The notes below the pieces were generated by a model. That model made no database searches. It saw nothing but the letters and a program-made list of their open reading frames with translations, and was not told the DNA's origin. A DNA stretch of 60,314 bases, counting the filler, from Porpidia crustulata (lineage: Eukaryota): assembly GCA_964255105.1 (NCBI GenBank). It is 10 parts of 10 records of this genome, joined end to end, with 100 filler letters (N's around TTAATTAATTAA, not from the genome) between each part and the next. Parts side by side here need not be neighbours in the genome. Positions count along the whole stretch, not along the records: positions 36,317 to 42,252 come from CAXUWE010001670.1; 9 more parts are not named here. The stretch is one strand, 5' to 3'. Below, piece after piece: positions 5,963 to 54,399 of the stretch. The position numbers and the translations under genes were made by a program. Every line of letters starts with the position of its first letter. The stretch's first letter is position 1.

Positions 5963-6062
5963 NNNNNNNNNNNNNNNNNNNNNNNNNNNNNNNNNNNNNN
6001 NNNNNNTTAATTAATTAANNNNNNNNNNNNNNNNNNNNNNNNNNNNNNNNNNNNNNNNNNNN
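5963..6062. other. Artificial contig spacer N44-TTAATTAATTAA-N44
   Basis: Identical 100-nt all-frame-stop linker that occurs nine times in the window. Confidence 0.98.
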
Positions 6063-12023: not shown

Positions 12024-12123
12024 NNNNNNNNNNNNNNNNNNNNNNNNNNNNNNNNNNNNNNNNNNNNTTAATTAATTAANNNNNNNNNNNNNNNNNNNNN
12101 NNNNNNNNNNNNNNNNNNNNNNN
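12024..12123. other. Artificial contig spacer
   Basis: N44-TTAATTAATTAA-N44. Confidence 0.98.
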
Positions 12124-18082: not shown

Positions 18083-18182
18083 NNNNNNNNNNNNNNNNNN
18101 NNNNNNNNNNNNNNNNNNNNNNNNNNTTAATTAATTAANNNNNNNNNNNNNNNNNNNNNNNNNNNNNNNNNNNNNNNNNNNN
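18083..18182. other. Artificial contig spacer
   Basis: N44-TTAATTAATTAA-N44. Confidence 0.98.
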
Positions 18183-24128: not shown

Positions 24129-24228
24129 NNNNNNNNNNNNNNNNNNNNNNNNNNNNNNNNNNNNNNNNNNNNTTAATTAATTAANNNNNNNNNNNNNNNN
24201 NNNNNNNNNNNNNNNNNNNNNNNNNNNN
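24129..24228. other. Artificial contig spacer
   Basis: N44-TTAATTAATTAA-N44. Confidence 0.98.
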
Positions 24229-27401: not shown

Positions 27402-27576
27402 TTCTATTTGAAGTAATTCTATTTGAAGTAATTCTATTTGAAGTAATTCTATTTGAAGTAATTCTATTTGANNNNNNNNNNNNNNNNNNNNNNNNNNNNN
27501 NNNNNNNNNNNNNNNNNNNNNNNNNNNNNNNNNNNNNNNNNNNNNNNNNNNNNNNNNNNNNNNNNNNNNNNAGTAA
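27402..27576. repeat. 15-bp minisatellite (TTCTATTTGAAGTAA)n spanning a 100-N scaffold gap
   Basis: Four perfect units, and a fifth split by the gap at 27472-27571. Confidence 0.9.
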
Positions 27577-30172: not shown

Positions 30173-30272
30173 NNNNNNNNNNNNNNNNNNNNNNNNNNNN
30201 NNNNNNNNNNNNNNNNTTAATTAATTAANNNNNNNNNNNNNNNNNNNNNNNNNNNNNNNNNNNNNNNNNNNN
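30173..30272. other. Artificial contig spacer
   Basis: N44-TTAATTAATTAA-N44. Confidence 0.98.
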
Positions 30273-36216: not shown

Positions 36217-36316
36217 NNNNNNNNNNNNNNNNNNNNNNNNNNNNNNNNNNNNNNNNNNNNTTAATTAATTAANNNNNNNNNNNNNNNNNNNNNNNNNNNN
36301 NNNNNNNNNNNNNNNN
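36217..36316. other. Artificial contig spacer
   Basis: N44-TTAATTAATTAA-N44. Confidence 0.98.
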
Positions 36317-39300
36317 CTTCCCCCCCGCCTTACCGCCCACCACGTTCGAGATCTCGCTTCCCCAGGCGTTCGCGGAGGCGCCTTTTTGCGTTGCTTCCTG
36401 GCTGTTTGTTAGCGGTGTTTCGGGTGTTATGGGCGAGGTTAAAGGAGAAGAAGAGGGGAGGCTACTTCGGAAACATAACAGCCGTGCACGACTTTACCGT
36501 CGTGGGCCGCCCCCGCGGACACGGTGACCGACTTTTGCATTGTATTAGCCTTTTNNNNNNNNNNCCGTCGTGCGCGTCCGCGGCGAACAGGTAGACGGAC
36601 TTGTCCTTGCTCTTCGCCTTGACGTGATTAAGCGCCTCGCCAATGGCCTTGGCGTTTGCGGAAATGGGCAATTTGGCCACGTACGTCTTGGCGTCCTTGT
36701 TTTCCGGATCCGCAAAAAAGGCCACGACCGCGTCGACGGCTTTCTTCGCCTCGGCTTTCTGCTGGGCTTTTTGCTCGTCGAGCTGGCGCTTGGCGATGGC
36801 GGCGAAGCGGTCGCGGAGCTTGGATTTGGCGAGGGCGGAGACGGCGAGCTGGTTGAGGTCGGACTGGGTGAATTTGATGTGCTGTTCTTTTGGGGGGCCG
36901 GGGGCCATGTTTTCGAGGGCGGAGAGGCGGGCGCTGAAGTCGGTGGCGAGGCGCTGGACGGCATGGGCGTCTTCGCCGGTGACAGCGATAATGCGGCGGA
37001 TGCCTTTGGCGATGCCGCTCTCTTCAATGATGACGAGGTCTTTAATGTCGCCGGTTTTTTGAACGTGGGTGCCGCCGCAGAATTCGACGCTTACTTCTCT
37101 CCAGCGGGGGTCTTTGGTGTTTTTGAGTAGGTCTTCGACGTCGATGCCGACCGAAACGACGCGGACGGGGTCGGGGTAGGTCTCCCCGAAGACGGCGCGG
37201 ACGCCTTCGATCTCGCGGGCGGTGGATAGGGGGACGTCTTTTGAGTAGACGCCGCAATTCTTACGGATGTATTTCGTGGAGATGTCTTCGATTTTCTCGA
37301 GATCAGTATCTGAAACTCCAGATTTGTGAGAGAAGTCGAAGCGAAGTTTCTCCGGAGCGACGAGGGAGCCTCTCTGATTGATGTTGTCGCCAAGGACCTC
37401 TCGGAGGGCAAAATTAAGGATATGAGTGCCTGTGTGGTTATTTCTTATGGGCCATCGGCGGAGCTCGTCGTACTCGCAGATGACTTGATCTCCTGCTGAA
37501 AAGGAACCATATTTCATGAATCCAGTGTGTAAGACATAGCCAGCATATACCTGAACGTTTTGGACCTCAAGTTCAGCAATTCCGTCGATAATGATTTTTC
37601 CTGTGTCGTTTTCTTGCCCACCCTGCTCCGCGTAGAAATTCGTTCGATCCACGATCAAACCTAGCTGCTCACCTTCCGGTATATCCTGTGTCGATTGAAA
37701 GAACTTCTTGCCGTGGTAAACGGTTTGTAATCGAGAATTGATGTTTCCTCTGCCAAACTTGGGGCTATCATCTGTTTTTGTAACGTCGCTCATCTTAGAT
37801 AGACTGCTAATATCATGGACATCCAACTTTACAAGATCTAATGCCGTCTTCTTCTCTCCTCTACTGGCTTCTTTCGCCTTTAGCCTGGCCTCCTCGAATT
37901 CTGCATCGTCGATATCTAACCCTCTCTCTTCTGCCATAAGCCGAGTAAGATCTACGGGAAAACCAAAGGTATCGTACAACCGCCACACGTCAGCGCCATG
38001 GAGCCTTTTCGAATCTTTTGACTTGGCCTGCTGTGCGTAATTCTCGAATTGCTTCTCGCCACGGTCAAGAGTCTTGGCGAAGGATTCTTCCTCCTCATTC
38101 AATATCTCGATAACATCGGATTCTTTCTTCTTGATCTCAGGAAACATGTCGCCCATTTGCTTGACCAGGGTCGGAACTATCCTCGAGAAGAATGTTCCGA
38201 TGTCAGAGTTGAAGTATTTCCTTGCATATCGAGCTCCTCTTCTCAGTACTCGCCTCACCACGTAACCCCGTCCCTCGTTGTTGGGTGCGGCGCCGTCCGA
38301 GATAGCAAACACAAGTGTCCGTACGTGGTCAGCAACCACTCGATAGGCCGTATCAATACCGTCTGAATCCTCTTCTCTAAATTTACCCCTATACTCTCGC
38401 GCCCCGGTGACTTCCTGTATAGTCTTGAACAGCGGTGTGAAAACATCTGTGTCATAATTCGACATTTTATTCTGAAGTATAGAGACTAATCGTTCATATC
38501 CCAAGCCGGTATCAACGTGTTTGTTGGGTAACGGCCGGAGAGATTTGTCCGGTTCTCGATTATACTGAATAAATACATTATTCCATATCTCGAGAACGTT
38601 TGGATCATCTTGATTGACTAGTTGTGCAGCATTTCTACCTCCTATCCGATCGTAATGTATTTCACTGCATGGCCCACAGGGTCCTTGTTCGCCCATTTCC
38701 CAGAAATTGTCTTTCATGTCTCCAGTAAGTATGTGATCATCAGCAACACCGACCGATTTCCAAAAGTCCCTTGCTTCCAAATCTGCTTCAAGACCTCCAG
38801 CCTTGTTGCCTTCAAAATAAGTCACATAAAGACGGTCAGGCTCGAGCCCGTAAATTTTCGTTAGTAGCTCCCAAGAGTAATGGATGGCTTCTTTCTTGAA
38901 ATAATCTCCAAAACTCCAGTTCCCCAGCATTTCGAAGAAGGTCTATATAATAGGATGAGTCCTGATCTTTAGTAAAATCTCTCTAGTCAACACTTACATG
39001 ATGATAGCTGTCCTTGCCCACATCGTCAAGGTCCTTGATGAATAAGTGACTGATTGTCTATAAAATGGTAAGAGCTTACATTATGCTTACCCCCCGCGCG
39101 GATGCACTACTCGAGTCAATATATTATCTCCATCTAAGATGAAAAGCTAACCTTTTGGGAGTTCACGGCTCGCTTGAGCTGCGCAAAATCCGACGAAGGG
39201 TCGACGGTACCTAGGAAAATAGACTTATACTGATTCATTCCGGCATTGGCAAAGAGTAAAGTCGGATCTGAGTGGGGTACGACAGAAGATGAGGGCACTG

Positions 39301-39576
39301 TCCAGCTATTAGCACCAATATCAAAGTTTATACCACCTAAATCGGTTCACCAAAAGTGTGCCCATTCTTTTTGAAAAAATCTAGGAACGTGTCTCGCACC
39401 CGCACAGCATCCCAATATCATTCTGTTTTACTGGGAGCCATCCTGGATTCTGTAATTTTGCGTCGCCCAATTTGGGTAATATTTGGTTGAGATAGTTTGG
39501 TCCCGGCATAGAATGATCTCGAAGAGTTGTGACTTAGACAGGCTCCGCAACTTTTTAGCACATTCACTCCTCGCAT
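36317..39576 (-). CDS. ALA1: Alanine--tRNA ligase (cytosolic ATG 39441, putative mitochondrial ATG 39576); in-frame TGA at 39420-39418; 3' truncated
   Basis: [71 protein letters not shown], editing motifs NHTGTH and [19 protein letters not shown]-Ala VGGKAGGK. Confidence 0.96.
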
Positions 39577-39705
39577 CAAGCGGGCATTGGCTGGCGATGA
39601 AGATCTCACAGGGTAACCGTGAATCAGGTTGAATAAGGGAGGGTTTGGCAGATTTCTTCAAGATTATCTACCGGATTGACGGGGGGATTGGTTGTCTCTG
39701 TCTGA

Positions 39706-40377
39706 ATGGATTGTGCCGTTGGAGGTTCAGCTCACGCCGGGACGAAACGCCATGCCGACGATGATTTGGCCCACGAGCAACGACTTTCCAAAAGATTTAA
39801 TCTACTCAATCTGGGTGTGTGAGTCATCTACAGCATTTACCTCAAGTCTGGCTGACTCATTGCTATAGAGAACAACAGCAAGCTATATGTTCCAGTCAAG
39901 CAACCTGCGCCGCAGCCTCTTTCACATGCCAATGTCGATGATGGTTCGATGCAATTGGATAACACGAAAGAGAAGGTCTACATCTATAATCTAGATCGGG
40001 AGCTGGCAGATATCGAAAGTGAAGAAGAGAAGCTCGTCTTCCTACCTGATATAGAGAAGAAGCTTGGGAAGATACCCAAGTCGCTGCTCACCGGACATAC
40101 CCAACCTGCGGCCAACACTCAAATGGTGCTTTACAACGTCCCATCATCTCTCACGGTTGCCCCGGACCAAGATAACGTTCGGAAGGTTATCATTGAGACT
40201 AGAGCCAGGGCAAGGGAAAAGCAGATAGAGGACGCTGGAGCGTTACAAGCAACCAATCATGATCTATCAAACCCGATGAATCGAGATCAGGTCGGCCAAT
40301 ACGGTAATATATCGAATGGGACGGGATATACGGAGGACTATGATAGTGATTACGAGAATGCTATGGACATAGGGTAG
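39706..40377 (+). CDS. Conserved-looking fungal hypothetical protein
   Basis: Two exons: KRHADDDLAHEQRLSKRFNLLNL| then MQLDNTKEKVYIYNLDRELADIE..LVFLPDIEKKL..MVLYNVPSSLTV..DNVRKVIIETRARAREK. Confidence 0.7.
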
Positions 40378-42252: not shown

Positions 42253-42352
42253 NNNNNNNNNNNNNNNNNNNNNNNNNNNNNNNNNNNNNNNNNNNNTTAA
42301 TTAATTAANNNNNNNNNNNNNNNNNNNNNNNNNNNNNNNNNNNNNNNNNNNN
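42253..42352. other. Artificial contig spacer
   Basis: N44-TTAATTAATTAA-N44. Confidence 0.98.
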
Positions 42353-48283: not shown

Positions 48284-48383
48284 NNNNNNNNNNNNNNNNN
48301 NNNNNNNNNNNNNNNNNNNNNNNNNNNTTAATTAATTAANNNNNNNNNNNNNNNNNNNNNNNNNNNNNNNNNNNNNNNNNNNN
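48284..48383. other. Artificial contig spacer
   Basis: N44-TTAATTAATTAA-N44. Confidence 0.98.
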
Positions 48384-54299: not shown

Positions 54300-54399
54300 N
54301 NNNNNNNNNNNNNNNNNNNNNNNNNNNNNNNNNNNNNNNNNNNTTAATTAATTAANNNNNNNNNNNNNNNNNNNNNNNNNNNNNNNNNNNNNNNNNNNN
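54300..54399. other. Artificial contig spacer
   Basis: N44-TTAATTAATTAA-N44. Confidence 0.98.

Follow-up and report, generated by a model that had tools for sequence, protein, structure and literature searches.

The deposited draft of this lichen fungus contains an alanyl-tRNA synthetase (AlaRS) gene in which a TGA stands in frame behind both of the possible start codons. Is this codon read through, avoided or corrected by the fungus, or is it absent from the gene that the fungus actually uses? Were the stop real and bypassed, we would have before us the first case of a housekeeping aminoacyl-tRNA synthetase relying wholly on stop-codon recoding, an arrangement which would throttle all alanine charging, and one would have to accept that, in one lineage at the level of a species, codon 8 of such a gene is recoded constitutively. 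We analyzed the locus within a window of 60,314 nucleotides (the whole stretch of DNA under study), against related loci and proteins, and against public sequence data. The deposited sequence does contain the TGA, but the gene that is at work in the fungus most likely does not.

Structure of the AlaRS gene

Read on the minus strand from 39441, the sequence is ATG GCT CCC AGT AAA ACA GAA TGA TAT TGG GAT GCT GTG CGG GTG CGA GAC ACG TTC CTA GAT TTT TTC. The codon before the TGA is GAA and the codon after it TAT, which gives the tetranucleotide UGA-U. The other start, ATG 39576, is in frame with ATG 39441 (Table 1). Since neither start is downstream of the stop, a true and uncorrected stop would abolish both forms of the enzyme and would be a null. 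Exon 1 has AG dinucleotides with their G at 39431, 39423, 39393, 39381 and 39367, and a scan of TGATATTGG revealed none between TGA and TGG.

The rebuilt spliced model, on the minus strand, comprises 937 codons with exactly one stop, and all four of its introns are of the GT..AG type. From residue 10 onwards it matches P0012, the alanine--tRNA ligase of Lobaria immixta (the name given by its source), with 84% identity over 881 residues and no gap openings. The best protein matches come from lichen-forming fungi (Lecanoromycetes) and show 78-90% identity; the Pfam domains PF01411, PF26023, PF07973 and PF02272 are recorded on these matches and not on the window's own protein. The gene is a member of the AlaRS family by full-length collinear similarity, the DHHA1 end being cut away by the contig end, while its reading frame is interrupted twice, by the TGA behind both ATGs and by a frame break at a join of ten N's (N10).

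Several of these points had been read from the sequence in an earlier note, and they agree with the minus-strand reading, the frame check and the spliced model: the location of the TGA at 39420-39418, as codon 8 of an otherwise intact AlaRS; the two in-frame starts (39576 and 39441) ahead of it; the lack of an AG between it and the Trp codon; the position of the next in-frame Met past the stop, inside ANAGMNQ; and the integrity of the downstream exons and splice sites up to the gap at 36555, where the model has four clean introns and no other stop.

In its layout the gene is a usual fungal AlaRS of the ALA1 type with dual starts. Like the dual-targeted enzymes of this type it has two in-frame starts, 45 codons apart, and a presequence-like extension. 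We know of no described ALA1 with an in-frame stop behind both starts. In Saccharomyces cerevisiae the mitochondrial form starts at ACG codons (PMC2909995), as against AUG for both starts in the present gene. As a rule, a single AlaRS gene provides the cytosolic and the mitochondrial forms in yeasts (PMC3245939).

A DUF6649-family ORF (39856-40377, plus strand; Pfam E value 8.5e-38) points away from AlaRS at a distance of about 280 nt from ATG 39576. DNA similarity to the two closest related loci, L001 and L002 (see below), continues to 40379, so that the divergent AlaRS/DUF6649 pair is conserved.

Table 1. Features of the AlaRS locus and of the record in which it lies. Positions are those of the window; L001, L002 and L003 are related loci from metagenome contigs.
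Feature	Position	Strand	Remarks
Upstream in-frame ATG, opens a 45-codon presequence-like extension (presumably mitochondrial form)	39574-39576	-	aligns with ATG of L001-L003
ATG of the short form (presumably cytosolic)	39439-39441	-	aligns with ATG-GCT of L001, L002 and L003
In-frame TGA	39418-39420	-	codon 8 from ATG 39441, codon 53 from ATG 39576
Exon 1, spanning the two start codons, the TGA codon and the W-x-A-x-x-VR-x-x-F-x-x-F helix	39351-39576	-	
Intron 1, 53 nt, GTGAAC...CAG, GCTAAT branch-like site	39298-39350	-	
Exon 2, ends ...NSQK	39152-39297	-	
Intron 2, 45 nt, GTTAGC...TAG	39107-39151	-	
Exon 3, CIRAGGKHN	39080-39106	-	
Intron 3, 46 nt, GTAAGC...AAG	39034-39079	-	
Exon 4	38998-39033	-	
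Intron 4, 55 nt, GTAAGT...TAG	38943-38997	-	
Exon 5 as far as the N10 gap, 792 codons, no stop	36565-38942	-	dN/dS 0.033 against L001
Scaffold artefact: N10 (36555-36564) and 59 letters (36496-36554)	36496-36564	-	no counterpart in L001 or L002
Remaining gene on the contig: end of exon 5 (36495-36466), intron (36465-36398), first 27 codons of the last exon (36397-36317)	36317-36495	-	
Linker, 44 N + TTAATTAATTAA + 44 N, nine identical copies	5963-6062, 12024-12123, 18083-18182, 24129-24228, 30173-30272, 36217-36316, 42253-42352, 48284-48383, 54300-54399		

Quality of the record and public data over the codon

The window is not one contiguous locus. At least 10 contigs have been chained via nine 100-nt linkers, the spacings of which shrink steadily (6061, 6059, 6046, 6044, 6044, 6036, 6031 and 6016 nt), the parts being arranged by decreasing length. 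Since the contigs are unlinked and arranged by length, gene order across the linkers carries no meaning. The premise of a single contiguous window, on which the earlier note had relied, therefore fails: RRP17, CAC2, TDP1 and ACB1 are located on contigs other than that of AlaRS. The AlaRS contig (36317-42252) terminates within the gene, about 33 codons short of the AlaRS stop seen in L001, and the linker at 36217-36316 marks its edge.

Apart from the linkers, two gaps occur in the window, one of 100 N and one of 10 N. The former, at 27472-27571 within a different contig, is a plain gap which does not carry the TTAATTAATTAA motif. C- or G-rich runs are found at many contig ends, for example at 36317, 42252, 42353, 48283 and 54299 (CTTCCCCCCCGCC, TATACCCCCC, GTGGGGGCGGGG, CCCCCCTCCC and CTCCCCCTTCC), which suggests that such tracts are points where the assembly breaks.

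The 10-N gap is the one inside AlaRS. The 59-letter insert at this join ends in a repeat of CACGACGG, which is also present just before the gap, and L001 and L002 are continuous there. The join represents two overlapping contig ends left unmerged, and the AlaRS frame is broken at this point. The gene has, besides the TGA, at least one clear assembly artefact. In practice it should be borne in mind that this record is a chain of unlinked contigs of about 6 kb with join artefacts, in which neither a lone gene defect nor an apparent gene order across linkers is to be taken for biology unless reads bear it out.

The search of public runs yielded one set with this DNA, under the same organism label (X1), which contains a fraction of 0.84 of the sampled words, and no RNA run; X1 was compared in the form of contigs. 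One of its contigs (2436 nt) matches 38900-39306 with no differences; another (2195 nt) matches 39409-39900, TGA included, with one differing letter, and is at least 99% alike. Mean word depths of these contigs are 8.5 and 8.9. As the listed differences seem to keep a distance of over about 30 letters to the ends of matched pieces, the differing letter would lie near 39409-39439 or 39870-39900. If it falls outside the codon, X1 has the same TGA; X1 is, however, maybe the sample behind the window, so that its agreement is not independent support. X1 has no contig over 39307-39408, a hole which proves nothing. Two further run sets, X2 and X3, derive from other organisms and matched exons 2-4 only, exon 1 not being reached.

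One additional X1 contig, of 214 nt and with a depth of 2.9, is AlaRS-like and matches 39230-39268, in the conserved exon 2, with 5 differences in 39 letters. It appears to come from a second AlaRS-bearing genome, or a paralogue, in the X1 sample.

Comparison with related loci

A scan of metagenome contigs yielded 80 related AlaRS loci, and the W..VR..F..FF motif was found by pattern in 48 of them; the other 32 of the 80 were unscorable, being either too distant or without the 5' part. In every one of the 48 scorable loci the frame is open from the in-frame Met to the Trp, and none has a stop there. The tails which precede the Trp in these loci are 2-21 residues long.

Most of the 48 scorable fungal loci have a first in-frame Met 50-150 codons before the Trp and a second one 2-21 before it. 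To judge by these sequences, the arrangement of two AUGs for two forms, the longer one carrying a presequence, is common among these fungi.

The most similar loci, L001 and L002 (92% amino acid identity in exon 5), align with the window codon for codon, and both ATGs match. Against GAA TGA TAT TGG in the window they have GGA GAG CAG TGG, with GAG (Glu) in the TGA column; in the three codons preceding the Trp, 7 of the 9 letters differ between the window and these loci. The exon-1 ORF has two matches only in the protein collection, P0121 and P0122, the first of which (from a contig of an 87% relative) reads MASAKSGEQW. An alignment of exon 1 from close relatives had been proposed in the earlier note, and it shows that the stop is not conserved, all 48 scorable loci being open and the closest two reading GAG. 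The same note had guessed at a change of CGA to TGA. As a specific change this is not supported, for the aligned codon in L001 and L002 is GAG and the letters before the Trp differ as described; the N-terminal tail evolves so fast that no ancestral codon can be named at the TGA.

No match closer than 92% at the amino acid level was found in the protein or metagenome collections, and the species itself is therefore absent from those collections. An exact 42-base query from just downstream of the stop had no match in the genome contig collection. Exon 5 shows a dN/dS of 0.033-0.039 against L001, L002 and L003, and a dS of approximately 1.8-1.9 to L001 and L002, a distance at which the comparison cannot date a young mutation.

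Explanations for the TGA

The TGA probably reflects an error in the consensus, or else a private variant. The stop itself, its absence from the scorable relatives, the intact remainder of the gene and the draft state of the assembly are shown by the comparisons above; that the letter is a wrong one, or one that does not represent the gene, we infer. What would have happened is either a base-call or consensus error, or the fixation into the consensus of a minority or private variant, on a short contig of a fragmented lichen-fungus draft. The living fungus would possess a sense codon at this position, in the poorly conserved N-terminal tail of AlaRS, and the gene would work as it presumably does in the relatives, with one nuclear gene and two in-frame AUGs giving rise to a presequence-bearing and a short form.

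AlaRS is essential, and a stop behind both of its starts fits an error. It also counts for an error that the gene otherwise looks functional, with one stop in 937 codons, clean introns, a gapless match to the Lobaria enzyme and a low dN/dS. Since the window is made up of short draft contigs, and a scaffold artefact occurs in the very same gene, an error becomes more plausible. As to base rates, a 60-kb draft would hold tens of thousands of coding bases, and one wrong letter would have a few per cent chance of creating a stop. The case resembles other assembly-specific premature stops in draft and metagenome assemblies: a single stop in an intact, constrained and essential gene, absent from the scorable relatives, on a short contig of a fragmented assembly with other artefacts in the same gene. 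It differs from them in that the artefacts demonstrated here are join faults and not wrong single letters, and this counts against an error, as do the 936 other codons, which are free of substitution-type damage, and the variability of the tail, on account of which the relatives cannot tell which codon belongs there. The stop is best classed as a premature one specific to this assembly rather than as a genuine feature. The earlier note had considered a consensus error or a nonsense allele to be the simplest option, and the present evidence points the same way.

One might alternatively regard the TGA as a real nonsense allele, that is, a fresh null, with the enzyme being supplied by other nuclei or genotypes of the thallus or by a second AlaRS copy, and no special decoding being called for. 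We consider this unlikely. With the nearest relative at a dS of about 1.8, a young real mutation is compatible with the data and would leave no other trace, and the X1 contig that spans this position shows an identity of 99% or more, its one difference being of unlisted place. The 214-nt contig of X1 is in keeping with other AlaRS-bearing genomes in the sample. A haploid fungus, however, cannot survive a null of an essential single-copy gene; the window, which is 60 kb only, contains one copy of AlaRS and no second; and the remainder of the gene shows no decay.

A real recoding of the TGA is improbable, and the same can be said of readthrough, editing and alternative processing taken together. 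We know of no precedent for recoding in a housekeeping synthetase. That the UGA is real and fixed behind both starts of the only AlaRS gene, so that all AlaRS would be made through sense decoding (near-cognate readthrough or mRNA correction), we regard as very improbable. Readthrough by a near-cognate tRNA (Trp, Cys or Arg), which in a very slow-growing fungus would deliver enough full-length AlaRS from both starts, is quite improbable. The tail around the site is variable and would accept any residue, and a GAA codon precedes the UGA; in yeast, two adenines directly 5' of a stop are reported to favor readthrough. UGA is, moreover, described as the leakiest of the three stops (PMC4748822). The order given for yeast in that paper is UGA-C > UGA-A > UGA-G > UGA-U, however, and the context here, UGA-U, is the least leaky of the UGA tetranucleotides. 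The fold of 39445-39320 (126 nt, -30.4 kcal/mol) is not significant (z -1.14; 27 of the 200 shuffled sequences fold equally well), and no Rfam family was matched on the AlaRS contig at E values of up to 1. Basal readthrough amounts to about a per cent or less, for which an enzyme both abundant and essential would pay a high price.

Eukaryotic cases of programmed UGA readthrough have in common with the present one an in-frame UGA and an open, conserved frame behind it. The known cases, however, are C-terminal extensions with a leaky UGA-C and a conserved stop, whereas here the stop is at codon 8, the context is UGA-U, and a stop is seen in none of the 48 scorable relatives (32 of the 80 being unscorable). 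The context and the absence of the stop from these relatives weaken the option of readthrough that had been raised in the earlier note, to which the local fold lends no significant support.

Its conclusion that UGA is not globally reassigned, on the other hand, holds: TGA closes the ORFs of TDP1 and of the Nop25/RRP17 family, which are located on other contigs, and in TDP1 it does so 26 codons past a Pfam match which reaches the final profile position (445/445). The AlaRS of L001 likewise terminates in TGA. No tRNA gene was found in the 60-kb window. As regards selenocysteine, the Rfam search, in which nothing matched, covers the AlaRS contig, which ends before the 3' UTR where a SECIS element would lie; to our knowledge, Dikarya lack the selenocysteine machinery.

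It is highly improbable that the stop is avoided via another start or splice. Three routes were considered: ATG 39421 combined with splicing from a GTGCGA donor at 39399 into exon 2, the removal of 39 nt, and a near-cognate GTG or ACG start within the helix. The first of these is in frame and gives MILGCCA-VPSSS..., and the second (GT 39431 to AG 39393) removes a multiple of three. All three, however, delete or truncate the W..VR..F..FF helix, which is kept in 48 of the 48 scorable relatives. The 39-nt segment is also shorter than the introns of this gene (45-55 nt) and has no branch-like site, and in the absence of splicing the ORF that opens at ATG 39421 is closed after 24 codons. The proposal that the out-of-frame ATG might rescue the gene was right in that the product is in frame and loses the conserved helix, but as a rescue it is weakened by the retention of the helix in the relatives.

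We also rejected the idea that an exon from further upstream is joined to the gene behind the stop, there being no AG between TGA and TGG, and the DUF6649 gene occupying the opposite strand within about 300 nt of ATG 39576.

Scarcely credible, finally, is the correction of a real UGA to UGG (Trp) in the mRNA through A-to-I editing, in that the edited A would follow a G, and a housekeeping synthetase would require near-complete editing at all stages. The restoration of premature stops by editing is known in filamentous ascomycetes (PMC11156358; PMC10776026, PMC11169179), and the minimum-energy fold places the TGA in an 11-nt hairpin loop, a setting which fungal editing prefers. The 126-nt fold is nevertheless no better than that of shuffles, with the z value given above. 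Fungal A-to-I editing is strongly biased towards U at -1 (PMC11156358), so that UAG, and not UGA, is the stop which is corrected. According to the same review, genome-wide editing is linked with the sexual stage, its mean level being 14.8%, and was not found in Aspergillus nidulans or Botrytis cinerea (Eurotiomycetes and Leotiomycetes); Lecanoromycetes are nowhere mentioned there.

Restorative editing in Fusarium and Neurospora (e.g., PUK1, TAGTAG to TGGTGG) is alike in involving a premature stop in an intact fungal gene and a predicted hairpin loop. There the stop is UAG with U at -1, and editing is sexual-stage-specific and mostly affects genes needed only then (PMC11156358); in the present case the stop is UGA, the base at -1 is G, the gene is a housekeeping one, and the class is one for which that review describes no such editing. 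The option of editing in the earlier note is weakened by the G in place of U at -1, by the link to the sexual stage and by the two classes in which editing was not found. In the hairpin predicted at 39403-39439 (minus strand), the region of the start codon is paired with that of the Trp codon, and the TGA sits in the loop.
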